Of a DNA stretch of 32,000 nt, positions 1,171 through 30,747 are shown piece by piece. The notes below the pieces were generated by a model. It ran no database searches and was not told the DNA's origin. It saw only the letters and a program-made list of their open reading frames with translations. A program made the translations under genes and the position numbers. The stretch comes from Candidatus Tremblayella phenacoccinincola (lineage in GTDB: Bacteria; Pseudomonadota; Gammaproteobacteria; Burkholderiales; Burkholderiaceae), in NCBI RefSeq assembly GCF_009805595.3, contig NZ_VMQO03000001.1, positions 30,001 to 62,000 on the forward strand, read 5' to 3'. Position 1 is the first letter of the stretch; each line of letters starts with the position of its first letter.

Positions 1171-4100
1171 ATGTATAGAAACGCACAAAGGTATGTACAT
1201 TTAAGGATGCATTCAGAGTTCTCAATATTAGATGGCACTATCAGGCTAAATGAAGCGTTAGAATGCGCAAAGGCAAACAGACAAGGGGCTTTAGCTTTAA
1301 CTGATCTCAATAATATGTTTGGAGCAATAAAGTTTTATAAGCTATCAAGAATTCAAGGCATTAAACCAATAGTCGGATGTAACCTATCAATTAAACATGG
1401 TAGTTCTGAAAGTAGGAACAAAAGCAATATCATTTTGCTAGCCACTAACGTACAAGGGTATCGTAATCTTTGTAAAATAGTTACTATGGCTTGGACAAAT
1501 CATAATATCAACAGCTATTCAGTTCTCGATGCATATAACATAACTCAAAGATCTTCCAGTTCAATAGCTATAGAAAGAGAATACCTGAAAGGAGAGCTAA
1601 CAAGAGGTCTCATAGTTTTATCAGGAGCAACACAAGGAAACATAGGACAGGCCATAATGGACGGAGAAATGCATGCTGCGAGAAACCTGTTGAATGAATG
1701 GTTAGAAGACTTCTCTGGTAGTTTTTATGTTGAGATTCAACGTAGCGGCCAACAAAGCGAGGAGCGTTATATAGATGGTGCAATAGAAATAGCTGTGAAT
1801 TCTAGAACACCAATCGTAGCAACACATCCAATTCAGTTTCTCAAATCAACAGACTTTCAAATGCATGAAGTCAGGGCTTGTATTTCTGAGAATAAGACTC
1901 TTTTTAATAAACAAAGAGCCAAGAAATACACATATGAACAGTATTTCAAATCCAAAAGAGAGATGTGCAGCCTATTTAAAGATATCCCTTCAGCTTTAGA
2001 AAACACTGTACTTATAGCTAAAAGATGTAACTTAACCCTGAGGTTAGGAGATATTAAGCTTCCTACTTTCCCAAAGCCTAAGGGTATTTCAATTAAAAAG
2101 CTTTTCGTAGTTTCAGTAGTTAATGGTTTAAAAAACAAGATCCAAAAGAAACGAATAAGAATTAAAAGTGCTTCTTTCGTTCAATACTTTAACAGAATAG
2201 TATTTGAGTTCGAAGTAATACTTAGAATGGATTTCTTAGGCTATTTCCTGATAGTTTCAGACTTTGTATGTTGGGCTAAGAGAAATGGAGTTCCAGTGGG
2301 TCCAGGTAGAGGGTCTGGTTCAGGTTCTCTAATAGCATTCATTTTAAATATTACCGATGTTAACCCAATTCAGTACGGACTGCTGTTCGAAAGGTTCTTA
2401 AACCCAGGTCGTATAGCAATGCCAGATCTCGATATAGACTTCTGTCAAGTGGGTAGGGACAGGGTCATAAACTATGTAATGGGTCTGTATGGAAGTAACC
2501 TGGTATCACAGATCACAACGTTCGGAACATTTGCGGCAAGAGCTGCAATTCGAGACATAGGAAGAACATTAGGTTTACAGCATGTCATAACAGACAACAT
2601 TGCAAAACTCATTCCCCAAACTACTGAACAGCAACAAAAGCTTAACTACAACACACTAAAGCTTGAAACCATCGTATTGAATCCTGAAAAGCCCGAAGAA
2701 TATACACGGCCTATGGTAGGTAGTAGCGTTAGACGCTTGATTAATTTAGCAGTTAGGATGGATGGCTTAGCTAGAAACGTGGCAGTTCATGCCGGAGGAG
2801 TGTTAATATCACCAGTAAAGATTTCGATGTTCTGTCCTTTGTATTCACAAGAGGGCGAAGCCAATATATTAGTAAGCCAATTCGATAAAGATGATGCAGA
2901 GTCAGTGGGGTTAGTAAAGTTCGACTTTCTTGGACTTACAACTTTAACTGTTCTCAATAACACAGCAAGACATATTAAAGCTCTCCATAAGCTGAAGGCT
3001 TGGACATTGGAGGGCATATGTATGGAAGATATGGATTCATTTAAGCTCTTGCAAAAGTCAGATACCATAGCCATATTCCAATTTGAAAGCTCAGGAATGA
3101 AAAGGATTCTAAGAACAGCTAAACCAGATTGCTTTGAGGATATTATAGCTCTAATAGCTTTGTTCAGGCCAGGCCCTATGCATTTAATGTTCAGTTACTG
3201 CAAAAGAAAACATGGGTTGGAAAGCTCACAATACATAAACAACCGTCTGGAACCTATATTAAAAGAAACATATGGAATAATAATATATCAGGAACAGGTC
3301 ATGCAAATCGCTAGAGTTATCGGTAGATACTCACTTGCAAAAGCTGATTTACTCAGAAGAGCAATAAGTAAAAAGCAAACACTCGCAATGGAACACCACA
3401 GGCTGATCTTTCAAAAAGGTGCCAGGTGCATTGGATTAACCAACGATGAATCTAAAGCAATATTCGAACTAATGGAGAAGTTTGCTTGCTACGGTTTTAA
3501 CAAGTCTCACGCAACAGCTTACGCTATATTAGTCTTTCAGTCAGTCTGGTTAAAAGCTCACTATCCAGCTGAGTTTCTAGCTTCAAACTTAAGCTTATCA
3601 ATGCACGAAGTTAACAGGACTATCAAATTGTATAAAGACTCTTCAAATAGAAACATAGAACTCCTGAAACCAGATGTTAACAAGTCTTTTTATCAGTTTA
3701 GGCCAGTTGAGCTTGAATCCATAAAGACTATGTTCAAACCAAGCTCTAAACCTAAATATAAACCTAAAGCTATATTGTACGGACTGGGTGCGGTCAAAGA
3801 CGCCGGTAAATACGCTGTTCAAGAGATCATAAAGATTAGAGAAACCAAGGCTTTTTCAGGCTTACTTGACTTCTGTTTTAGAACTAACCGAAGAAACATA
3901 AGCAAGAAAACCATTGAGTCTTTAATAAGATCTGGCGCCTTCGATAGTTCTTGTTGTTCAATAAGAAGATGTGTTTTAATAAGAATGTTATCAGCGATTA
4001 TAAGGTATTCAGAAAGAATAAAGACATCCGTAGATATCAGCGACTTAAACCCAAACAGCGATTCCTTTGAGATTAACCTAAACAGAGCAATGAGAAAGAT

Positions 4101-4737
4101 AAGTCCAATTTGGAGTGAAAGAAGACTATTATATGAAGAAAAGAAAGCATTAGGTTTTTATCAGTCTGGACATCCATTTAAGGTATTTAAAAGTGAAATT
4201 AGAAGACTTGTTCCAAATAGCATAAGATTCTATAGAACTAGCTCTATAGGAAACCAAGCCCTCTTATGTGGCGTAGTTACCAGCTATTTCCATAAGCTAA
4301 TTAACAACAAAATCGTAGCTGTTATTCTTTTAGAAGACGACGAAGACCAATGTAGCATTTATCTCAACAGCTCAACATTACCGTCCGATGTTAAACTAGA
4401 CAAACTTATAATAGCAACTGGACTCATTCTCGCTCCAAAAGACTACGATAGATTAACCATAACAGCTGACAGAACATATAGTTTAACGTCCGAATGTATT
4501 AAACAATGTAGGCTTGTAACTCTTGTTTGTAACTTCGAATCAAACATCACAAAAGCTTCTAGCTTCTTTAAAAAACCCACAAACAACTCAGACAAACCTA
4601 TATACGTACAGATAAACCACAAGTCTAAGTCTTTTGTAATCTTAGACCATAAGTTAGCGATACCAAACGAAGCTACATTAAAAGAACTTAGGAAAGCTCT
4701 TGATAATGGAAACCTAAAAGTCAAATATATCTACTAA
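1171..4737 (+). CDS. dnaE: DNA polymerase III alpha subunit
   Basis: 1188-aa ORF. It has the PHP-domain N-terminus YVHLRMHSEFSILDG and the motifs GPGRGSGSGSLIAF, PDLDIDF, VKFDFLGLTTL, FRPGPM and GFNKSHATAYA. It is collinear with DnaE along its full length. Confidence 0.97.
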   Translation: MYRNAQRYVHLRMHSEFSILDGTIRLNEALECAKANRQGALALTDLNNMFGAIKFYKLSRIQGIKPIVGCNLSIKHGSSESRNKSNIILLATNVQGYRNLCKIVTMAWTNHNINSYSVLDAYNITQRSSSSIAIEREYLKGELTRGLIVLSGATQGNIGQAIMDGEMHAARNLLNEWLEDFSGSFYVEIQRSGQQSEERYIDGAIEIAVNSRTPIVATHPIQFLKSTDFQMHEVRACISENKTLFNKQRAKKYTYEQYFKSKREMCSLFKDIPSALENTVLIAKRCNLTLRLGDIKLPTFPKPKGISIKKLFVVSVVNGLKNKIQKKRIRIKSASFVQYFNRIVFEFEVILRMDFLGYFLIVSDFVCWAKRNGVPVGPGRGSGSGSLIAFILNITDVNPIQYGLLFERFLNPGRIAMPDLDIDFCQVGRDRVINYVMGLYGSNLVSQITTFGTFAARAAIRDIGRTLGLQHVITDNIAKLIPQTTEQQQKLNYNTLKLETIVLNPEKPEEYTRPMVGSSVRRLINLAVRMDGLARNVAVHAGGVLISPVKISMFCPLYSQEGEANILVSQFDKDDAESVGLVKFDFLGLTTLTVLNNTARHIKALHKLKAWTLEGICMEDMDSFKLLQKSDTIAIFQFESSGMKRILRTAKPDCFEDIIALIALFRPGPMHLMFSYCKRKHGLESSQYINNRLEPILKETYGIIIYQEQVMQIARVIGRYSLAKADLLRRAISKKQTLAMEHHRLIFQKGARCIGLTNDESKAIFELMEKFACYGFNKSHATAYAILVFQSVWLKAHYPAEFLASNLSLSMHEVNRTIKLYKDSSNRNIELLKPDVNKSFYQFRPVELESIKTMFKPSSKPKYKPKAILYGLGAVKDAGKYAVQEIIKIRETKAFSGLLDFCFRTNRRNISKKTIESLIRSGAFDSSCCSIRRCVLIRMLSAIIRYSERIKTSVDISDLNPNSDSFEINLNRAMRKISPIWSERRLLYEEKKALGFYQSGHPFKVFKSEIRRLVPNSIRFYRTSSIGNQALLCGVVTSYFHKLINNKIVAVILLEDDEDQCSIYLNSSTLPSDVKLDKLIIATGLILAPKDYDRLTITADRTYSLTSECIKQCRLVTLVCNFESNITKASSFFKKPTNNSDKPIYVQINHKSKSFVILDHKLAIPNEATLKELRKALDNGNLKVKYIY

Positions 4738-6919: not shown

Positions 6920-7360
6920 ATGTATATAACCACTATAATAAATAATAATAAGATACCCTTTCAATATTATGTTGAGAAAAGACTTGAAGCCGGTATTTCA
7001 TTACAAGGGTGGGAAGTTAAGGCTCTTAGGTTTAAAAAGATAAGCATTAACAATAGCTATGTTTATATCAAGGAAAGTGAAGCATACATATTTGGTGCTA
7101 GCTTTCAGCCTTTATATTTTATATCATGTTCAGGCATAAACTATGAACCATTAAGAAACCGTAAGCTGCTTTTAAATAAAAAAGAGATTGTTCTTTTATA
7201 TGGCTCAGTATATAAACATAAGGGTTATTCTATAGTAGTTGAATCTTTATATTGGAAAGGCTCTTGGTGTAAAGCTAGTATAGTTTTAGTTAAAGGTAAA
7301 AAAGACTACGATAAAAGAAATGATTTAAAAAAGAATAGCTGTTTGTCTAATGCATACTAA
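6920..7360 (+). CDS. smpB: SsrA-binding protein SmpB
   Basis: 146-aa ORF. EAGISLQGWEVKALR, RNRKLLLNKKEI, GYSIVVESLYWKGSWCKASIVLVKGKKDYDKRNDLK is collinear with E. coli SmpB. Confidence 0.93.
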   Translation: MYITTIINNNKIPFQYYVEKRLEAGISLQGWEVKALRFKKISINNSYVYIKESEAYIFGASFQPLYFISCSGINYEPLRNRKLLLNKKEIVLLYGSVYKHKGYSIVVESLYWKGSWCKASIVLVKGKKDYDKRNDLKKNSCLSNAY

Positions 7361-8060: not shown

Positions 8061-10571
8061 CTATTTTAAAGCTAATATGTTTATTATCTTATTAGGAATA
8101 TATATTATTTTATATGCTTTTTTAGTTTTAAAATACCTTAATGCCTTTTCATATAGGTATAGTTTATCTTTTATTAGAGCTTCTCCTATATTCATAGGAA
8201 CCTCAATAGAACCTCTTACTTTATTATTTATTTGTACTATTATTGATAAGCATATAGGCTCTATGGTTGTTTTGTTTAGATTAAACCAATATAGCTCTTC
8301 TATAGCTTTTCTGTTGTTTAGCTCCTTCCATAATATGGAACAAATATGAGGAACAAAAGGACTAATTACTTTTATAGTTAGGTTTAACAGCTCTTTGGAT
8401 AAAGAATAATCCAACTCTTTTATTTTAGGCATTTTAACTAACTTACTAACTATTTTCATAATAGAGGCTATCGAAGTATTAAATGAATGACGCTCTTTTA
8501 TATCTTTAACTATATTAATAATAGACTTATTAACCTCCTTGTATAATAACAACTGTTCTTTGTTTAGAGAATTAACATCAAAAGGCAAAACATATCTTAG
8601 TTCTACATGCTCATATACAATCTTCCATACTTTATTTAAAAACCGATATGAACCTTCTATTCCTGACTGCTTCCAAATAATATCTATGTTAGCAGGAGCA
8701 GCAAACATAATAAATAATCGTAAAGCATCAGCGCCATATATTTCTAATACTTTTCCTGGACATGTACCATTATTTTTAGACTTTGACATCTTATGAATAC
8801 CTGCATGTTTGACCTCATTACCATCTAAATCAAAAAGCTTAGTTAGCTTGTCTTTATTATTATATCTAGTAACTACGTTTAGTGGAGAAACCCATTTAAT
8901 GCTTTTATCAACATAGTAAAAAGCTTCCGCTAAAACCATCCCTTGACAAAAGAGTTTTCTTACTGGCTCTTTATAGCTAAACCCAACTAACCCAGCATCT
9001 CTTAATAGTTTATAATAAAGCCTAAAATATAATAAATGCATAATTGCATGCTCTATTCCACCTATATATTGATCAACAGGTAACCAATAGTTTGTTGCTT
9101 TTATATCTATCATGCTTTTTCTAAAGTCTGGGCAAACATAACGAATGTAATACCACGAAGACTCTAAAAAGGTATCAAAGGTATCAGGTTCACGATAAAC
9201 ATCTTTTCCTTTATATATTACTTTATACCATTTTACATTCTTTTTTATATTAGTTACTAACATATAGCTATTTACTAATAGGCTTTCATCCAATAATATA
9301 GGTAATTCTTTAGCTGCTACAGGAACTACCTTTTTAGGTTTTAATAGCATTGGCATAGGAACTCCCCAAATACGCTGTCTAGAAATACACCAGTCTTTTA
9401 AGCTATAGTTTATCTTTTGGTTACATTTATTAGTTTTAATTAACTTATTCATTATAGCTTCAGGCTTTTGAGGGTTACCATATGTTGATTTGTTTTCAAT
9501 ACATATTTCAGTTGGCAGTCTATGGTTTATAGCAAAGCTAAAATCTTCTATATATATAGAAGGAATACCTATACTAATACCTGTTCCATAGTCTTTTATT
9601 ATATGCTTAACTACCCAAACTGATAGCTTTATATTTGTTAATGGGTTTATAGCATAAAGATCTGTATTTAGTTCTTCTTGATAACTATGGGGTTCCCCTA
9701 GCTTAGTTTTTAAACAGCCTGTAATAAACCCTTTTACCTCTTTTACGTTCTTTTTAAGAGCTAATAAAGATAAGCAATGGTAAACTGATATATATATATA
9801 TGTAGCTTTTAACAAGAGTTCTGGGTTTATAGCATATATATTTAAACTATTATCTTTAGCTTCTATATTAAATACTATACCTATGCCTTTAGATTTACCT
9901 ATCCAGCTTCTTTGCATATCTTTTATGTTTATTGGCCAATAGGTTAAATAGGCTAGTTCTTTTAATAGGTCATCTGCATATGAAGTTATTTTAATAAACC
10001 ATTGCGAAAGCCTTTTAAAAGCTATAGAGTTATTACACCTCCAACAGCAACCATTAACAGCCTGTTCATTTGCTAATACAGTTTTATCAGTAGGACACCA
10101 ATTAACAACTGTTTTGCTTTTATATGCTAACTCCTTATTATATAGAAATACATATAGCCATTGCTCCCATATATAAAACTCTGGTTTGCATGTGATAAGT
10201 TCTCGAGACCAGTCAAAGCTAAAACCCATAGGCTTTAGCTGCTTTCTCATATACTTTATATTATTATATGTCCATTCAGAAGGGATACTTTTATTATTAA
10301 CTGCCGCACTTTCCGCAGGTAAACCAAAAGCGTCCCATCCAATCGGATTCAAAACAGATATTCCTTGCATACGTTGGTATCTAGCTATAGTGTCTCCTAT
10401 TGTATAGTTTCGTATATGACCCATATGAAGCTTACCAGAAGGATAAGGCAACATAGATAAACAATAATGCTTTTCTTTTTCAATAGACTCAGTAGCTTTG
10501 AATATCTGGCTTTTCCCCCAATATTCTTGAACATTAGCTTCTATTTCTTTATGGTAATATAGGACATCCAT
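8061..10571 (-). CDS. leuS: leucyl-tRNA synthetase
   Basis: 836-aa ORF with HIGH (PYPSGKLHMGHIRNY) and KMSKS (KMSKSKNN) motifs. The N-terminal 200 aa are almost collinear with E. coli LeuS: KEKHYCLSMLPYPSG, IARYQRMQG, NWCPTDKTVLANEQAVNGCCWRC, QWFIKITSYADDLL. Confidence 0.97.
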   Translation of the reverse strand: MDVLYYHKEIEANVQEYWGKSQIFKATESIEKEKHYCLSMLPYPSGKLHMGHIRNYTIGDTIARYQRMQGISVLNPIGWDAFGLPAESAAVNNKSIPSEWTYNNIKYMRKQLKPMGFSFDWSRELITCKPEFYIWEQWLYVFLYNKELAYKSKTVVNWCPTDKTVLANEQAVNGCCWRCNNSIAFKRLSQWFIKITSYADDLLKELAYLTYWPINIKDMQRSWIGKSKGIGIVFNIEAKDNSLNIYAINPELLLKATYIYISVYHCLSLLALKKNVKEVKGFITGCLKTKLGEPHSYQEELNTDLYAINPLTNIKLSVWVVKHIIKDYGTGISIGIPSIYIEDFSFAINHRLPTEICIENKSTYGNPQKPEAIMNKLIKTNKCNQKINYSLKDWCISRQRIWGVPMPMLLKPKKVVPVAAKELPILLDESLLVNSYMLVTNIKKNVKWYKVIYKGKDVYREPDTFDTFLESSWYYIRYVCPDFRKSMIDIKATNYWLPVDQYIGGIEHAIMHLLYFRLYYKLLRDAGLVGFSYKEPVRKLFCQGMVLAEAFYYVDKSIKWVSPLNVVTRYNNKDKLTKLFDLDGNEVKHAGIHKMSKSKNNGTCPGKVLEIYGADALRLFIMFAAPANIDIIWKQSGIEGSYRFLNKVWKIVYEHVELRYVLPFDVNSLNKEQLLLYKEVNKSIINIVKDIKERHSFNTSIASIMKIVSKLVKMPKIKELDYSLSKELLNLTIKVISPFVPHICSILWKELNNRKAIEELYWFNLNKTTIEPICLSIIVQINNKVRGSIEVPMNIGEALIKDKLYLYEKALRYFKTKKAYKIIYIPNKIINILALK

Positions 10572-10750
10572 AGCTTATTAACGTTTGTTTAGGGTTTTAT
10601 GCATCTAGGCTAAACCACGAAGCTACTATTGAAACAACCAATGGTTTATGTTGTAGCTAAAGGACTAGCTGTATAGGTTTATAGATACATTCTTTATTGT
10701 ACTAAGGAACTGTTGTTAGAGACTCTAGAGGGAGAAGTACTTCTAGCATA

Positions 10751-10833
10751 TACCGAGGTGGCGGAATAGGTAGTCGCGTTACTTTGAGGTGGTAATGCTT
10801 TATAAGCATACGGGTTCAAGCCCCGTCCTCGGT
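10751..10833 (+). tRNA. tRNA-Leu (anticodon GAG), class II with long variable arm
   Basis: Acceptor ACCGAGG/CCTCGGT, anticodon arm TTACT-TTGAGGT-GGTAA, long variable arm TGCTTTATAAGCAT, T arm ACGGG-TTCAAGC-CCCGT, discriminator A. It is very similar to E. coli leuU as I remember it. Confidence 0.9.
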
Positions 10834-10861
10834 ATTATATAATAAACATAATACACATCTA

Positions 10862-10936
10862 AAGCGGAGTGGAGCAGTTTTGGTAGCTCATCGGGCTCAT
10901 AACCCGAAGGTCGTTGGTTCAACTCCAACCTCCGCA
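10862..10936 (+). tRNA. initiator tRNA-fMet (anticodon CAU)
   Basis: Near-identical to E. coli tRNA-fMet (…GCGGAGTGGAGCAG…TCGGGCTCATAACCCGAAGGTCGTTGGTTCAACTCCAACCTCCGCAA). It has the initiator hallmarks: a 1:72 mismatch (A1/A72 here) and three consecutive G:C pairs at the base of the anticodon stem (GGG/CCC). Confidence 0.88.
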
Positions 10937-10980
10937 ACTACAGCTAACTTCCCTTCCTAGCTAGGAGCTCTTGGTTTATT

Positions 10981-11183
10981 AGGAGAAGGTAGGAGAGGAG
11001 AGAGTTAACAGCTATAGCTATTAAAGAGCTTCTCTCTCCCCTCTCTTATATATACTTCTACTTCTAACTAACCTTCTCCTCTTCTCTCCTTTCCCTTTCC
11101 TTATTCTTATCCACCTTTCTCCTCTCCTTTCTCCCCCCAGGCTTCCCCCTCAACACATCCAAACATTCCTCTCCTTTCATACC
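10981..11183. repeat. GA-rich arm, short central palindrome, then G-free CT-rich low-complexity spacer
   Basis: 10981-11004 is C-free purine-rich (AGGAGAAGGTAGGAGAGGAGAGAG). The centre contains AGCTATAGCT. 11029-11139 (111 nt) and 11142-11183 contain no G. GGAGAGAG (10997-11004) can pair with CTCTCTCC (11033-11040). The spacer contains CTTCTACTTCTA and TTCCTTATTCTTATCC, which recur in the large satellite at 17408-17963. Confidence 0.8.
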
Positions 11184-11224: not shown

Positions 11225-11857
11225 CTAGCTACTACAAACCACAAACATCTCTGATGAACCAACCCTTGACGTCTCGGATCTTTCAAATATTAAGAACTTA
11301 AAATAGTACTTAAACAACTCACTAATAGCTTCTCGATATTGAGGAAAGAACCTATACAGTAGCTTCCCTTTCTTACTCAGAAACCTAGAAGTAAAAGCTA
11401 ATAAACTCTCAAGCCCTGCTTTGTCAACACATCTAGCTCTTGGAACACTAGCACTAGAACAAACGTCTGCAAGAATAAGATTGAACTTAGAGGACTTAAT
11501 GGTTAACCCCATCCCCATTTCAACCTCAAGTCTGGTTTGGAAGTTGCAGTCTGTGTAGTCTCCGTTAATAAAATATACACCGCTTATGCTTTCCATTTGT
11601 AGCTTATCAATAGCAACAACCTTGTACGTTCCACTGCTAGTCCTTTTTTTAACCTCCAATACATACTGACTCCAACCTCCAGGTGAAGCACCTAAGTCTA
11701 ATATTGTGGTACTTTTCTCAATAAGCCTATATTTGTCATTTATATTCTTCAGAGCAACCACAGAGTTTGTTCTATAGTCTTGAGTTCTTGTTTTTCTAAT
11801 AGATAATTCCTTAGTGTAACGCTTGAACCAGCTGTACGTCTTGAAGTCCTTGCTCAT
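11225..11857 (-). CDS. rlmE: 23S rRNA (U2552 2'-O)-methyltransferase RlmE/FtsJ
   Basis: 210-aa ORF with the SAM-binding motif ILDLGASPGGWSQYV, collinear with E. coli RlmE. The start ATG overlaps the carB stop in ATGA (4-nt overlap, 11854-11857). Confidence 0.88.
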   Translation of the reverse strand: MSKDFKTYSWFKRYTKELSIRKTRTQDYRTNSVVALKNINDKYRLIEKSTTILDLGASPGGWSQYVLEVKKRTSSGTYKVVAIDKLQMESISGVYFINGDYTDCNFQTRLEVEMGMGLTIKSSKFNLILADVCSSASVPRARCVDKAGLESLLAFTSRFLSKKGKLLYRFFPQYREAISELFKYYFKFLIFERSETSRVGSSEMFVVCSS

Positions 11858-15030: not shown

Positions 15031-16137
15031 TTATTCCACACTGTTGACTACGGTTATGAAGGCATCAAACAGATATTCTATATCTTTGGGACCTGCACAT
15101 GCTTCTGGATGTCCTTGAAAGCTTAACGTTAAATACGTATAGGTCTCCAACCCTTGGACTGATTCATCGAATAAAGATATATGTGATATCCTGAAAGCAT
15201 CGTTTAGAGAGGCTGGTTCAATGGTAAAGCTATGGTTCTGAGCTGTGGTTACTACAGCCCCGCTGTTTAGATCTTTAACCGGATGGTTGGTGCCATGATG
15301 TCCAAACCTCAAGCGTTTAGTTTTTGCACCCAAGGAAAGAGAAGTAACTTGGTGCCCGAAACAGATACCTAACATAGGAATCCTAGAATGTATTAGCTTT
15401 TTAACGTTTGAGATTATATCTGGGTTTATGCTAGGACTACCAGGTCCATTAGATAAAACTATTCCATCCACAGCTAGGTTCAAAATGTCCTTACAGTTGA
15501 CGTAAGCAGATACAACATAAACTATACAGCTTCTATCCATAAGACATCGCAAAATGCTGAACTTTAACCCGAAGTTTAAAACTATGACTTTATGTTTATG
15601 TTCTAAGCAGTTTCTTTTGGAATGCCAAACAACAGAATTACCATTGAATGTTTCTTTCGCTAAGTCTCTCGTAGATATGTCTATTGAAACTCTAGCAACA
15701 TCAACAGCTATCTGATTAGCGTTCCTACTGGTTATAGCGCATCCTTTGATAACACCTCGAGTTCTTAAGAGTTGAGTTAACAACCTTGTGTTGACTCCAG
15801 ACAAAGCTACCATTCCTGTTTTCCTAAGCTTTTTGTATAAGGAGCTCATTATTCTGACACCAGATTGAAAAGCAGAAAACGAACGTACAATGATTCCTGA
15901 AGCGTAAGCTCTTTGAGACTCAACATCAGTATTATTTATACCTGAGTTTCCAATGTGCGGGAAGGTGAATACAATTAGTTGTCCAAGGTAACTTGGATCG
16001 GTAATAATTTCTTGGTAGCCAGTTATAGAAGTATTAAATATTAGTTCACCAGTGATGATGCCTTTTGCTCCAACTGATCTACCTTGCAATACTGCACCAT
16101 CCTCTAATCCCAAGACTGCATCCAATACGAACCTCAT
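15031..16137 (-). CDS. carA: carbamoyl-phosphate synthase small (glutaminase) subunit
   Basis: 368-aa ORF with GELIFNTSITGYQEIITDPSY, the catalytic Cys box MLGICFGHQ and HHGTNHPV. It lies 3 nt upstream of carB. Confidence 0.96.
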   Translation of the reverse strand: MRFVLDAVLGLEDGAVLQGRSVGAKGIITGELIFNTSITGYQEIITDPSYLGQLIVFTFPHIGNSGINNTDVESQRAYASGIIVRSFSAFQSGVRIMSSLYKKLRKTGMVALSGVNTRLLTQLLRTRGVIKGCAITSRNANQIAVDVARVSIDISTRDLAKETFNGNSVVWHSKRNCLEHKHKVIVLNFGLKFSILRCLMDRSCIVYVVSAYVNCKDILNLAVDGIVLSNGPGSPSINPDIISNVKKLIHSRIPMLGICFGHQVTSLSLGAKTKRLRFGHHGTNHPVKDLNSGAVVTTAQNHSFTIEPASLNDAFRISHISLFDESVQGLETYTYLTLSFQGHPEACAGPKDIEYLFDAFITVVNSVE

Positions 16138-16202
16138 TTAGTTATAGGGTTTCTGTTAATAAAAAGATAAAAGATAATAAACCATCCATACTGGAGGCAA
16201 CT

Positions 16203-16885
16203 ATGATTTCAAAAGTTAGGTATGTTATATTAGATTCTGAGACTACAGGTTTAAATGTGCTGTCCGATAGAATTGTAGAGTTAGGATGCGTAGAGGTAAT
16301 GGAAGGTTCAGTCACTGGAAACTATTTTCATAGTTACATTAACCCAGGCTATTCAAATACTCCTGAAGCTTTTAAAATACACGGCTTGAAAGATTCCTTT
16401 CTTAGAAAACAACCTAGGTTTAAGGAGGTAGCTGATAGGTTTTTGCTTTTATATACGGAGCAGTAATAGTAGCCCACAATGCTTCATTCGATGTTAACTT
16501 CATAGACAAAGAGTTAGTCAGTATAGGCTATCTGCCAACTGCTCGGTTCATCTTAGGAATAATAGATACTCTCACAATAGCTAAGATATTATTACCTAAT
16601 AAGCGTAGTTCTTTAGACTATTTGTGTGATAGGTTCAAGATTCCAAGAGCCAAAAGAATAAAGCATGGAGCTCTGATAGATGCAAAGCTTTTAGCAGATG
16701 TCTTTATAGCATTGAATAAACTCAAAGCAGCAACAGCAGGGTTTAGAGATGGGAGTGTTCCTGTTGATCGTACGTCTCTTTGTAAATGTTTAGCTCTTAT
16801 AGAGGTTAGTAACAGTGAACTGCAGTTACATCAGAACATCCTTAACGAAATAAATAGACTTACGGTTGGTTGTTGCATTTGGTAG
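16203..16885 (+). pseudogene. dnaQ: DNA polymerase III epsilon (proofreading exonuclease), interrupted by one frameshift
   Basis: The ATG at 16203 is preceded by GGAGG (16190-16194). Frame 3 reads MISKVRYVILDSETTG…FKEVADRF and hits a TAA at 16464-16466. The protein continues in the -1 frame from about 16445 (AFIYGAVIVAHNASFD…HGALIDAKLLADVF…) to the TAG at 16883-16885. One extra T in the T5 run at 16440-16444 would restore a roughly 227-aa DnaQ. Exo I (DSETTG), Exo II (HNASFD) and Exo III (HGALIDAKLLAD) are all intact. The 16065 start in the ORF track overlaps carA and is spurious. Confidence 0.85.
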
Positions 16886-16960
16886 TTGGAACCAAAAGCA
16901 TATAGCTAACCAATAGCTGAAGGCATCTAAAAGGATTAGGTTTAGGTTAGGTAGGTTCTC

Positions 16961-17293
16961 GAGAGGATGGTGTGTTGTTTGTGTGTGTGGTTGGGAAGAT
17001 AAAGGTAGGAAGGGATGAGAGGAGGAAGAGTGTGTGTGAAGAAGAAGGTTGAAGAAGAAGGTTGAAGAAGAAAGGAGAAAGGGGGGAGATCTGTGAAAGG
17101 AAGGTAGGAAGGGGAAGGAGTTGCTTTCTAAACTCTTTTGGGAGATGGTTGGGGGGAAAGTCTGGGGGGAAGGGGGGTTAGTGGAAGTATTTCTTTAGTG
17201 GTGGTTTAGGTATTGGTAGTTCAGGTGAATACTTTCATTGGGGTTGGAGTTGGAGTTGGAGTTGGAGTTGAGTTGAGTTGGGTTGGAAGAGAT
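16961..17293. repeat. C-depleted GA/GT-rich low-complexity arm with tandem repeats
   Basis: 16961-17090 (130 nt) has no C, and I count only 10 C in 16961-17293. GAAGAAGAAGGTT occurs about 2.8 times at 17038-17075. (TTGGAG)x4 followed by (TTGAG)x2 lies at 17244-17277. There are several G6-G7 runs (17081-86, 17151-56, 17164-69, 17172-77). Confidence 0.9.
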
Positions 17294-17407
17294 CCCCTTT
17301 TTCTATGCTAGAACAGGCTGACAGTAGGAAAGAACATCTCAGCCTGACAAGACTACTGTGCACCCGATGGAGAAGCTTGGGGTGGAAGGCAGTCGAAGAA
17401 GCTACTG

Positions 17408-17963
17408 TACTCTCTCTCACACACACACACACACACATATATAAAACCCCACACATATATAAAACCCCTCTCTCCTACCCCTCCTCCTACCTCCTCCTTC
17501 TCTTCCCTTCCCTTTCCCTATACCCTTTCCCTATACCCTTTCCCTATACCCTTTCCCTTTCACTATTACTATTACTATTACTATTACTATTACTATCACC
17601 ATCACACATTTCCCCCCACATCCTCCCCACACACACACCTCTCTATATACACCTACATCTACACTACAATACACCTACACTACACCTACAATACACCTAC
17701 ACTACATCTACATCTACTTCTACTTCTACTTCTACTTCTACTTCTATACCTCTACTTCTCCTCTCTAACCCCCATGAAACCCCACACAACCCACACACCC
17801 CCTTTTCCCTTCCTATTCTTATTCCCCTCCCCCCTTTTCCCTTCTCAATACCCTTCCTATACCACCTTACCTTACCTTATTCCTATCCTTTTCCCTTCTC
17901 AATACCTTTCCTAATACCACCCCTCCCCTTTCCTAATACCACCCCTCCTACCTTCCTCTCTAT
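17408..17963. repeat. G-free C/T/A satellite block (micro- and minisatellite array)
   Basis: There is no G in 17408-17775 (368 nt) or in 17777-17963 (187 nt), so 556 nt carry a single G. The block contains these repeats. (CA)10 at 17418-17437. 18-bp ACACATATATAAAACCCC x2 at 17433-17468. 13-bp CCCTTTCCCTATA x3.8 at 17510-17558. (ACTATT)x5.8 at 17562-17596. (CTACTT)x5.5 at 17714-17746. A 20-nt exact repeat CCTTTTCCCTTCTCAATACC at 17833-17852 and 17887-17906. 20-nt TTTCCTAATACCACCCCTCC x2 at 17907-17926 and 17929-17948. Confidence 0.95.
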
Positions 17964-18002
17964 GGACAAACCATATAAACTACCAACACATAATTCCTTG
18001 TA

Positions 18003-18091
18003 GTCCAGATGGAGAAGCTGGTTTCCTCGGGGTTTCCCAAAGCTCAGCTTTCAGTATTTTAAACATATCGATTCAAATCCGACTCTGGATA
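18003..18091 (+). other. degenerate tRNA-like element (possible tRNA pseudogene)
   Basis: A 7-bp acceptor-type stem GTCCAGA (18003-18009) pairs with TCTGGAT (18084-18090), followed by A. It is directly preceded by a T-arm with the canonical loop TTCAAAT (18072-18078), but that stem is only 3 bp (ATCGA/CCGAC with two A:C mismatches). There is a D-arm-like GAG-AAGCTGGTTTC-CTC. The best anticodon loop is TTCCCAA (18034-18040, CCC) with an imperfect stem and about 21 nt of extra sequence. No clean cloverleaf forms. Confidence 0.3.
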
Positions 18092-18138
18092 ACAAAACAA
18101 AAAGGAACATAGCTTATCTCCAACTGGAGGCTTGAACT

Positions 18139-18225
18139 ATGATAAAGATAAACAAGTTCATTGTAGTTCTGTTGGTAATTCTCTGTGGACATCTGTTTGG
18201 TAAAGCATCTAGCAACACCAGCTAA
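18139..18225 (+). CDS. hypothetical 28-aa signal-peptide-like small ORF (may be a gene remnant)
   Basis: The ATG at 18139 has GGAGG 8 nt upstream (18126-18130). The product MIKINKFIVVLLVILCGHLFGKASSNTS has a basic N-terminus followed by a hydrophobic core. There is no homology evidence. Confidence 0.15.
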   Translation: MIKINKFIVVLLVILCGHLFGKASSNTS

Positions 18226-18310
18226 CATTGGCTTTTAGTATAGCCTCCCTGCCTCAACACATCCTCCCCCCCCCACTAGCTTACCTTAACTCTGTTGAGA
18301 CAGACTGATG

Positions 18311-18601
18311 TGGAGATGGTGGGAATCGAACCCACGTCCAAAAGTAAAGCTCGGTTAGTTCTACATGCTTAATCTTACACTAGCTTTTCCAATACACTAC
18401 GCATATATTAAAGAAGAAACTTTAGAGTCTGATTCTTTGTTCTAATGTGTAACAACTGTCATTAGATGTTAACTTAAACCTCTTCTTGTTTGCATTTGCG
18501 TGTTTCTTCTTTTTCTTAAGGAACACTTTGATCCCCCGAAGTTGGAACCATACGCATGCACTAACCTTTCTTTAGCTTTTGTCGAAGCCTTTGACATCCC
18601 C
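18311..18601 (-). ncRNA. ssrA: tmRNA (SsrA), short one-piece form
   Basis: On the minus strand the 5' end reads GGGGATGTCAAAGGCTTCGAC (canonical form GGGGNUG…UUCGAC). The 3' end reads TGGACGTGGGTTCGATTCCCACCATCTCCA (canonical form GGACGNGGGTTCGANTCCCNCC…TCCA). The acceptor GGGGATG/CATCTCC has the G3:U70 alanine identity pair and discriminator A. CCA is not encoded. Length is about 291 nt. The tag ORF is not certain; the only frame opening with a GCA resume-type codon is 18499-18422 (ANANKKRFKLTSNDSCYTLEQRIRL*). Confidence 0.85.
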
Positions 18602-25440: not shown

Positions 25441-25557
25441 TATAACATTCTATATATCCATATATCATTCCATATATATCCATATAACATCATTCATCTT
25501 CCCTTCCATCATACCACCATACTTATACTTCCATACAACCACACCCATACTTCAACA
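25441..25557. repeat. G-free A/T/C low-complexity spacer
   Basis: 117 nt without a single G. It is built from CCATATAT/TCCATA-type motifs followed by CATCTTCCCTTCCATCATACCACCATAC. The two ORF-track entries here (25385-25582 and 25438-25629) are translations of this tract. Confidence 0.85.
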
Positions 25558-26830: not shown

Positions 26831-26895
26831 CTCTCACAACTCATATCAAAGAATGTTAAGGTCACTCTAACTAACTTTTAAATAGAGGGGGCAGC

Positions 26896-27468
26896 ATAAA
26901 CATAACCATAAACATAACCATAAGCATAACTTCAACTAAACGAATTAATGGTGAAGCCTCAAACCCCAAAGTAAGAATAATTGGACTAAACAAAGAACTA
27001 TTAGGAACTATGAATTTAGAAGAAGCCTTAAGCATATCCAAAAGCTTAAAAACAGATCTTATTGAGACATCACCTAACAGCTTTCCTCCAGCTTGCTGCC
27101 TAATGGATCACGGTAAGTTCAAATATAGATCTTCAAAGAAAAAACAAAAAGATAAGGCTAAGCAAAAGACCATGCAAACAAAAGAAGTTAAACTTACTCC
27201 TAATATTGGCAAGAAGGACTACAGAATTAAAATGCGTCAGTTAGTCAGTTTCTTAGAGAAAGGAAACAAAGTTAAGGTCATTGTTAAATTCAAAGGACGA
27301 GAGATATGCTTTAAAAACATGGGCTTTGAGATTCTCAAAGAAGTCCAAACCGATCTTTCAGGCCTCTGTACAGTTGAACACTCTAAAAGAAAGGAAGACA
27401 AATGCATATCAATGTTCCTAACAACATTAAAACAAAGAAAGCCTAAACAACAAAAGTGGAATGCATAA
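26896..27468 (+). CDS. infC: translation initiation factor IF-3, non-canonical (ATA/ATT) start
   Basis: Homology to the IF-3 N-terminus (KRINGEASNPKVRIIGLNKELLGTMNLEEAL versus E. coli [31 protein letters not shown]) lies upstream of the first ATG (27010). There is no ATG, GTG or TTG in frame between the TAA at 26872-26874 and 27010. The ATA at 26896 follows the SD-like GAGGGGG (26885-26891) by 4 nt, and an ATT at 26944 is an alternative. Non-canonical start codons are the known autoregulatory feature of infC. Confidence 0.88.
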   Translation: MNITINITISITSTKRINGEASNPKVRIIGLNKELLGTMNLEEALSISKSLKTDLIETSPNSFPPACCLMDHGKFKYRSSKKKQKDKAKQKTMQTKEVKLTPNIGKKDYRIKMRQLVSFLEKGNKVKVIVKFKGREICFKNMGFEILKEVQTDLSGLCTVEHSKRKEDKCISMFLTTLKQRKPKQQKWNA

Positions 27469-28060: not shown

Positions 28061-28477
28061 TTGTATTATATATATTGCTTAGCATTCCAAATAATACCTG
28101 GTATAACAACAGCAATAGGTTCTACCATAGGAATACCATTAACTCATAGAAACTACTCTAATAATATAGCTTTTACAACAGGGTCTATATCCTATAAAAA
28201 CAAACCTAACTGGAATCTAGAACTAAATAAAAAGCAAACAATAATAATGTATATGTATGCAAGTAATATAACTAAGCTAAAAGAAAAGCTATTAAAAAGT
28301 AGCTTCTCAAATAAAACTCCAATAGCAATAATTACATCAAGCACTAATAAAAACCAAAAGATAATAATAAGCAACATAAAAAGCATAGAAAGCTTATCAA
28401 ATAATAATACAACACCCTCTATATTGATAATAGGAAATATAATAAAGCTATATAGAGATATTACTACATTCAATTAA
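28061..28477 (+). pseudogene. 5'-truncated remnant of uroporphyrinogen-III C-methyltransferase (CobA / CysG C-terminal domain)
   Basis: IIPGITTAIGSTIGIPLTHRNYSNNIAFTTGS…KQTIIMYM…TPIAIITSSTNKNQKII…TPSILIIGNIIKL aligns with the last roughly 135 aa of E. coli CysG ([34 protein letters not shown]…KQTLVFYM…MPVALVENGTSVKQRVV…SPALIIVGRVVAL). The N-terminal half of the methyltransferase domain, including the GAGPGD motif, is absent. TAG TAG stops lie at 28051-28056 and rplT ends at 28032. Confidence 0.75.
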
Positions 28478-30541: not shown

Positions 30542-30712
30542 AACAGTTGTTAGCTATTAACTTCTTTCAGACATAATAGGGGTTTCAACTAGAACTATAA
30601 CATAATTACATACTATAACAAAATAGATTAGAAACAGCTAGTCAAAAGCAGGTAACAGATAAACCCCAAACGCCAATACATATGAAAGTGTTAATATACA
30701 TATGCTTCTCTC

Positions 30713-30747
30713 TTCTCTATTCTCTATTCTCTATTCTCTATTCTCTT
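30713..30747. repeat. 7-bp tandem repeat (TTCTCTA)x4 plus a partial unit, inside a G-free tract
   Basis: There are four perfect TTCTCTA units at 30713-30740 and a degenerate fifth. 30705-30749 contains no G. The repeat lies in the convergent gltX/ileS spacer. Confidence 0.85.

Follow-up and report, generated by a model that had tools for sequence, protein, structure and literature searches.

A conserved single-base frameshift in the selectively maintained dnaQ gene of a mealybug endosymbiont clade, with ribosomal slippage as a possible route of correction

We analysed a stretch of 32,000 nucleotides (nt) from the assembly of Candidatus Tremblayella phenacoccinincola (contig NZ_VMQO03000001.1, positions 30,001 to 62,000; hereafter, the window), and we focused our study on dnaQ, the gene encoding epsilon, the proofreading subunit of DNA polymerase III. 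In the window this gene is distributed over two reading frames (Table 1). A first open reading frame (ORF1) carries the Exo I motif and ends in a TAA codon directly followed by TAG TAG, and the rest of the gene, including Exo II, Exo III and the C-terminal tail, lies in the −1 frame (ORF2). The −1 frame, in phase with position 16202, is closed by TGA TAG at 16433-16438 and open from the next base to its terminal TAG, and it is at this opening that a run of five T (T5) is found in the context AGG TTT TTG. A single uninterrupted frame was not found: reading switches to −1 within 16439-16463, and the orthologue in Candidatus Tremblaya phenacola PAVE is uninterrupted. The last seven codons of ORF1 (LLLYTEQ), which are located past the shift site, show no homology to epsilon subunits, and the insertion of one T in the T5 run results in a full-length epsilon of 227 residues with all its catalytic motifs present.

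Table 1. Position of dnaQ elements and of other features in the window
Feature	Position	Strand	Description
dnaE	1171..4737		Alpha subunit gene, intact
smpB	6920..7360		Present, intact
carA	15031..16137	-	Divergent neighbour of dnaQ; dN/dS control and handle for finding relatives
Shine-Dalgarno GGAGG	16193..16197	+	5 nt 5′ of the dnaQ ATG; GGAG in PPER and SRR24008595
dnaQ ORF1, 0 frame	16203..16466	+	ATG at 16203, 87 codons plus TAA (16464-16466); carries Exo I
Exo I	16233..16250	+	DSETTG, in ORF1
Internal Shine-Dalgarno-like element TAAGGAGGT	16421..16429	+	10 nt 5′ of the putative shift heptamer
Putative shift site G TTT TTG	16439..16445	+	Contains the T5 run (16440-16444)
dnaQ ORF2, −1 frame	16439..16885	+	Ends at TAG (16883-16885); Exo II, Exo III and C-terminal alpha-binding-like tail
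Exo II	16475..16492	+	HNASFD, in ORF2
Exo III	16664..16684	+	HGALIDA, in ORF2
Microsatellite-rich spacer dnaQ-ssrA	16886..18307	.	1.4 kb; tandem arrays dense at 17037-17948
ssrA (tmRNA)	18308..18601	-	95.8 bits against Rfam
rsmI-like ORF	28061..28477		138 residues; C-terminal half of TP_methylase only

The restored protein matched the Pfam family RNase_T over residues 8-168, spanning the junction (119.6 bits), and the NCBIfam model PRK05711 'DNA polymerase III subunit epsilon' over residues 6-227 (217.2 bits, cutoff 196); its score against TIGR01406 (206 bits) was under the cutoff of that model (222.7). Alignment with the Escherichia coli epsilon (PDB 5fku_D) covered residues 5-227 and was ungapped at the junction, with DSETTG, HNASFD and HGALIDA paired with DTETTG, HNAAFD and HGALLDA of the E. 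coli protein; these motifs are kept in all four lineages described below. The C-terminus (...LTVGCCIW, with a G-C-C-I-W tail) aligned with ...GGSCLW in E. coli and ...AGNCLW in PAVE. This tail resembles an alpha-binding segment, the gene of the partner alpha subunit is present in the window, and binding between the two is predicted. Such homology to a single protein across two frames makes a chance origin impossible. Among the 20-odd genes of the window, dnaQ is the only one clearly frameshifted. These results agree with the first-pass annotation of this DNA, made from the sequence without database searches, which had proposed the identity of the gene, a lesion consisting of one T missing from the T-run, and the preservation of the three exonuclease motifs.

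A scan of one genome per species revealed the dnaQ gene of strain PPER (contig NZ_MKGN01000017), whose product is 78% identical to that of the window and which shares with it the 87-codon ORF, the ...GATAGGTTTTTGCTTTTATATA... and the switch into the −1 frame. Further relatives were recovered from Logan assemblies of public SRA runs, using carA homologues as handles. The carA genes of SRR24008595 and SRR24008594, two runs representing one lineage, are 83% identical to that of the window, and carA of SRR13503347 is diverged from it by ca. 2%; the window carA matches an NCBI protein recorded for Candidatus Tremblaya phenacola (P0121) at 100% identity. Both Logan lineages present identical T5 and frame switch, and the Logan gene calls include an 87-residue RNase_T ORF. 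In all, the T5 run and the same frame switch were observed in five assembled contigs belonging to four lineages: the window, PPER, SRR24008594/5 and SRR13503347.

PAVE (CP003982) was used as outgroup. Its syntenic dnaQ encodes an uninterrupted protein of 239 residues that is 47% identical to the restored DnaQ and ungapped at the junction, and the gene order dnaQ<->carA-carB-rlmE is common to the window, PPER, both Logan lineages and PAVE. Despite this synteny, carA of the window and carA of PAVE (10001-11149 of the stretch examined) are also 47% identical; for lineages assigned to a single Candidatus species, this is a very deep divergence. Pairwise distances group the window with SRR13503347 and PPER with SRR24008594/5, leaving PAVE outside. 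The presence of the frameshift in both subclades, with PAVE outside and intact, indicates that the deletion is ancestral to the four lineages and took place after the PAVE split. A comparison with sister strains, which had been proposed in the first-pass annotation, thus gave T5 in PPER and in the Logan lineages and an intact gene in PAVE, and it does not support the recent lesion contemplated there: the frameshift predates the split of the two subclades (synonymous divergence, dS, ca. 0.3), and purifying selection has acted since. A full-length search among 5.8 billion protein clusters revealed no close intact DnaQ, or fragments of it (best matches 40-48% identical), a scan of JGI metagenomes yielded distant relatives only (41-42% identity), and exact-sequence look-ups of the 87-residue ORF, the window carA and P0121 returned no record.

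The position of the frame change could be bounded between 16439, where the −1 frame opens, and ca. 16451, where the homology is already in the −1 frame. Homology to the PAVE and E. coli proteins needs the −1 frame from approximately codon 85 (F-I-x-G), which places the shift inside TTT TTG CTT. No ATG, GTG or TTG codon exists in the −1 frame before the TTG at 16622, which is past Exo II, and therefore the downstream half is not startable by normal initiation. Furthermore, three nucleotides vary among the lineages within 16452-16463, where both frames are open. Read in the −1 frame they correspond to two synonymous changes and one A/S replacement, and read in the 0 frame to three non-synonymous changes (YTEQ, YTDQ, YMDR). 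This pattern indicates that ribosomes are in the −1 frame before they reach the 0-frame stop and argues against termination followed by reinitiation. An independent initiation of the C-terminal half was considered and rejected on account of the lack of a start codon and of the overlap substitutions, which follow the −1 frame.

To describe selection on the gene we used the ratio of non-synonymous to synonymous substitution rates (dN/dS) according to NG86, with p values from a Fisher test (an approximation) and with the downstream half read in the −1 frame. For this half, dN/dS values were 0.36-0.43 for deep lineage pairs (p from 2e-4 to 0.009), 0.40 for PPER vs SRR24008595, and 0.14 for the window vs SRR13503347 (6 synonymous and 3 non-synonymous changes, p = 0.006). 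Codons 82-140, Exo II included, accumulated 7 synonymous changes and 1 non-synonymous change between PPER and SRR24008595 (p = 1e-4). The values for the upstream half were 0.17-0.43, and those of the control genes were 0.24-0.34 (carA) and 0.09-0.18 (carB), so that constraint on the downstream half of dnaQ resembles that on carA. A dN/dS of ca. 1.5 was obtained for linker codons 141-186 in PPER vs SRR24008595, a linker that is poorly conserved in intact epsilons too. A single indel, of 3 nt and in frame, was found in the downstream half; the 65-nt spacer between carA and dnaQ has 2-3 indels, and the spacer 3′ of dnaQ is unalignable with that of PPER. In a neutral simulation started from the inferred ancestor, with branch lengths taken from the observed dS, the fraction of runs without a stop in any of three lineages was 0.07% (0.0007). 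The signs of an old pseudogene mentioned in the first-pass annotation, i.e. further disabling mutations and a dN/dS close to 1, were not seen in the downstream half: values were 0.14-0.43, significantly lower than 1, with no added stop or frameshift.

Conservation of both halves as protein implies that a full-length epsilon, with Exo I read in the 0 frame and Exo II, Exo III and the tail read in the −1 frame, would still be made. Since the −1-frame half is under purifying selection and has no start before Exo II, the frame would be corrected during expression at the U-run. Altogether, the sequence comparisons indicate that dnaQ is in all likelihood functional and that it needs this correction to be expressed. 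The rescue by slippage raised in the first-pass annotation is thus favoured by the selection evidence, from which it is deduced, rather than by direct demonstration.

As the route of correction, we tentatively prefer −1 ribosomal slippage. The site and both reading frames are conserved across the lineages, as seen in the alignment and in the dN/dS values, and the putative shift site is preceded at 10 nt by an internal Shine-Dalgarno (SD)-like element, TAAGGAGGT. No other stretch on either strand of the window is perfectly complementary over 9 nt to the canonical 3′ tail of the 16S rRNA, although the tail may differ in the host of the gene; the element does not vary among the four lineages and is missing from the intact dnaQ of PAVE, which has no T-run at the corresponding site either. 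Frameshifting in dnaX is known to be stimulated by an internal SD located 10 nt 5′ of its shift site (PMC5009743), and, if a canonical 16S tail is assumed, TAAGGAGGT has the sequence and the spacing of such a stimulator. The slippery site had been described in the first-pass annotation as an imperfect −1 site, G TTT TTG, and the frame change is indeed placed there, at a non-canonical heptamer. Regarding SD sequences in general, dnaQ is among the few genes of the window with a strong one (GGAGG at −10 to −6), an observation that bears on the capacity of the internal SD-like element. The AGGAGG hexamer shows no enrichment in the window (13 occurrences vs 12 expected).

The sequence of events proposed is as follows. 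In the ancestor of a T. phenacola clade comprising the window, SRR13503347, PPER and SRR24008594/5, after the PAVE split, one T would have been lost from the T-run of dnaQ and the gene would have been retained. A ribosome decoding AGG UUU UUG, with the anti-SD tail of its 16S rRNA paired with UAAGGAGGU 10 nt upstream, might then slip, so that the tRNA on UUG, together with tRNA-Phe on UUU, would move one base back onto U-UUU, the next codon being GCU. The expected trans-frame product is ...EVADRF-L-AFIYGAVIVAHNASFD..., and non-slipping ribosomes would terminate 7 codons on to give an 87-residue fragment. For a −1 ribosomal shift at UUG the predicted tryptic junction peptide is FLAFIYGAVIVAHNASFDVNFIDK. 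The junction residues would differ with the route: FLAF for the ribosomal −1 shift, FFAF if the mRNA has U6, and a junction shorter by one residue if tRNA-Phe makes a +2 slip along U5. U_UUG is weak and no downstream hairpin is evident, so the yield would probably be low, with proofreading attenuated and not abolished. We infer the frame correction, its ribosomal site, its efficiency and any effect on mutation rate from these data.

Several observations weigh against ribosomal frameshifting at this site. The heptamer G UUU UUG departs from the canonical X XXY YYZ, only the tetramer U_UUG fitting the pattern, and this tetramer is a poor −1 site in E. coli, where it reached 1.8-3.6 times a background of 0.064% even with a strong pseudoknot (PMC4066793). 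Regarding stimulatory RNA structures downstream of the shift, none stands out: the minimum free energy of the fold has a z-score of +0.54 in comparison with shuffled sequences, and the consensus fold of three sequences (−12.65 kcal/mol) shows little covariation. In addition, most genes of the window lack an SD sequence (ca. 3-6 out of 22 have GGAG, GAGG or AGGA within 25 nt of the start), and TAAGGAGGT may be inert, the 16S 3′ tail of the host being assumed to be canonical. Given the peptide F-K-E-V and local codon usage, the chance occurrence of this element was estimated from codon counts at ca. 8%. The possibility that TTG acts as a rare 'hungry' codon was also considered and rejected, as it accounts for 103 of the 845 Leu codons and is not especially rare.

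Transcriptional slippage, the chief competing route, which we consider unlikely though worth serious attention, would lead to the same protein except at the junction. RNA polymerase would stutter on the A5 template and add a U, and the resulting U6 mRNAs would encode epsilon (...DRF-F-AFIYG...). The lesion sits exactly in an A/T homopolymer, as this route demands, and the selection evidence for it is identical to that for ribosomal slippage. Transcriptional slippage has been demonstrated as the rescue of frameshifted genes in Buchnera and Blochmannia, and Blochmannia has interspecies-conserved frameshifts 'with no detectable degradation', including those in dnaX and dnaG, with ca. 30% of full-length transcripts (PMC3017870; PMC5009743). 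The length of the tract argues in the opposite direction. Tracts known to be rescued in this way have at least 9 A (PMC3017870), and the dnaQ tract has 5 nt in all four lineages and has been lengthened in none of them. Insertions during transcription have an overall rate of ca. 1e-5 per nucleotide, with an exponential increase as runs get longer (PMC5574713), so that slips on 5 nt should be very rare. Furthermore, the coding sequence of the window (25 kb) contains 24 T5 and 58 A5 runs, and a polymerase slipping at 5-mers would corrupt many transcripts. By E. coli standards both slippage routes would be inefficient, and epsilon is probably under-produced.

Correction might also reside in the DNA. 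In a polyploid symbiont, a minority of T6 copies generated by replication slippage could act in trans as a source of epsilon and maintain selection on the downstream frame, and assemblies, which give the consensus only, would show the majority T5. A T6 run would be the longest homopolymer of the gene, and hence a hotspot for replication slippage, and the region is rich in unstable repeats. We regard this explanation as quite improbable, given that all five contigs, from four lineages, have T5 as their consensus and that a mixture of majority-defective and minority-intact copies seems unstable through host bottlenecks over a dS of ca. 0.3.

Highly doubtful is the proposal that dnaQ is a true pseudogene, dispensable to the symbiont, in which the same T was lost independently and recently in each lineage at a mutational hotspot, so that the low dN/dS would predate inactivation. 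Endosymbiont homopolymers are repeatedly shortened, Blochmannia has been reported to have a gene with independent frameshifts (PMC3017870), dnaQ has been lost in other symbionts (PMC7821994), and the high dN/dS of the linker in PPER vs SRR24008595 points the same way. On the contrary, purifying selection is observed inside each subclade, which makes one event per subclade insufficient and requires four independent, identical and recent deletions; in addition, none of the four lineages has a second lesion, and the neutral simulation leaves little room for the stop-free frame.

A split epsilon, in which the 87-residue N-terminal fragment would assemble with a C-terminal fragment reinitiated at a non-canonical codon such as the AUA at 16466-16468, is very improbable. 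The 0-frame UAA overlaps this −1-frame AUA (GUAAUAGUA) in all four lineages, and the C-terminal fragment would keep Exo II. However, AUA is a very poor bacterial start codon, no −1-frame ATG, GTG or TTG precedes 16622, the substitutions at 16452-16463 imply −1 translation upstream of the stop, and the break would cut a helix of the exonuclease fold. Finally, an assembly or sequencing error in a genome that is really T6, the homopolymer miscall suggested in the first-pass annotation and known from some platforms, is effectively refuted by the same T5 in five contigs from independent projects and assemblers across four diverged lineages, by the ease with which Illumina data resolve a run of 5 or 6 nt, and by the lack of an intact close homologue among the 5.8 billion protein clusters.

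Several known systems resemble the dnaQ case in part. The frameshifts of Buchnera and Blochmannia (PMC3017870; PMC5009743), the closest precedent, also occur in obligate, vertically inherited insect symbionts as single-base indels in A/T runs, are common to species without further decay, affect replication genes (dnaX, dnaG), and have a lower dosage of full-length protein as expected outcome. In contrast, the gene is here dnaQ, its tract has 5 nt vs 9-12, and the bacterium is a betaproteobacterial mealybug symbiont of ca. 37% GC instead of a very AT-rich gammaproteobacterium; moreover, the SD-like element at a dnaX-like spacing suggests a ribosomal route instead of a transcriptional one. The E. 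coli dnaX gene (tau/gamma) likewise encodes a DNA polymerase III holoenzyme subunit, with a −1 shift, a 0-frame stop soon after it, and an internal SD-like sequence 10 nt 5′ of the shift site. It differs in having an efficient A AAA AAG heptamer and a 3′ stem-loop and in yielding the shorter gamma by the shift, whereas dnaQ has the weak U_UUG, no detected 3′ structure, and a shift that is needed for its only functional product.

In Portiera (PMC7821994), dnaQ is also hit in a sap-feeder symbiont with enlarged, microsatellite-rich spacers; the gene is degraded or absent there, whereas here a single lesion is found in an otherwise intact gene whose segments in both frames are under purifying selection. 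A further parallel is chloroplast atpB in Oenothera (I-iota) and tobacco. In that case (PMC8254509), an organelle-like, bottlenecked genome tolerates a 1-base indel in an essential gene, the frameshift being partly corrected by ribosomes at an oligo-A/T stretch; unlike the dnaQ lesion, the atpB mutation is a recent laboratory or spontaneous one and is not conserved across species. Among the papers accessible, a search of the literature revealed no paper tying T. phenacola dnaQ to a frameshift and none on recoding in dnaQ.

The region surrounding dnaQ is rich in repeats, as noted in the first-pass annotation and confirmed by a tandem-repeat scan. The window contains 27 tandem-repeat rows, concentrated in the 1.4-kb spacer 3′ of dnaQ, vs one weak row in the syntenic 21 kb of PAVE, where dnaQ is intact. 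The spacer consists largely of micro- and minisatellites with units TGAAGAAGAAGGT, TTGGAG, CA, TTCCCT, ACTATT, TACAC-like and CTACTT, its purine/pyrimidine strand bias reverses at ca. 17300, and a 241-residue ORF at 17278-18003 is a low-complexity artefact. Small arrays were also found in the metF-aroC, aroC-infC and gltX-ileS/valS spacers (25441-25553, 26895-26930 and 30706-30746, respectively), indicating that repeat-rich spacers are not limited to the vicinity of dnaQ. The contrast with PAVE plausibly fits reduced proofreading, but one comparison of two lineages is involved, and they differ in other respects that may account for it, the chimeric history of the genome (PMC11014885) being an alternative cause. 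Therefore, the part of the first-pass proposal of a mutator lineage that stands is the abundance of repeats in the window against almost none in PAVE; the link itself is anecdotal, and dnaQ would be at most under-expressed. A stronger version, in which dnaQ is expressed via a dedicated SD-stimulated −1 frameshift whose low efficiency sets the dosage of epsilon and thereby the rate of mutation and repeat instability (a 'mutation-rate dial'), is in our opinion distinctly unlikely.

Other features of the window and its relatives were recorded in the course of the analysis. The contigs of SRR24008594 and SRR24008595 stop at an identical base in the dnaQ linker, and that of SRR13503347 stops in the 3′ part of dnaQ, which suggests an assembly-graph break caused by repeat-rich or polymorphic downstream sequence. 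The genes next to dnaQ are tightly packed: 3 nt separate the carA stop from the carB start, and the stop of carB and the start of rlmE (ftsJ) share 4 nt in an ATGA-type overlap (11854-11857), with the same packing in the relatives. For the transfer-messenger RNA (tmRNA) encoded by ssrA, ARAGORN predicts a tag peptide, ANKKRFKLTSNDSCYTLEQRIRL, that is atypical and long and does not end in the usual ...LAA; smpB is intact. The rsmI-like ORF matches positions 110-211 of the 212 of the TP_methylase profile and is located directly 3′ of rplT, with no space for an N-terminal half. It may represent a shortened gene or what is left of a truncated one.

In Portiera and other symbionts, the loss of dnaQ has been proposed to trigger an unstable genome with large spacers and microsatellites (PMC7821994). 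Earlier comparisons set only lineages with dnaQ against lineages without it, and the gene of this T. phenacola clade appears to fall in between: broken in its DNA, kept by selection and probably expressed at a low level. The clade that has this broken-but-kept dnaQ is rich in spacer repeats and its genome is chimeric; in the sister PAVE the gene is intact and the genome tidy. This contrast makes the question of epsilon dosage testable, and the case offers a natural hypomorph of the proofreading subunit. If true, an SD-stimulated frameshift in dnaQ would, as far as our literature search went, be the first description of recoding in the gene of the proofreading subunit. Frameshifts maintained by selection would also extend to a tract of 5 nt, far under the poly(A) lengths for which transcriptional rescue is established, and a tract this short implies either ribosomal correction or an unusually slippery expression machinery. 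Finally, copies of dnaQ such as these would be scored as pseudogenes in genome annotation, and the lineage as 'dnaQ-minus'.

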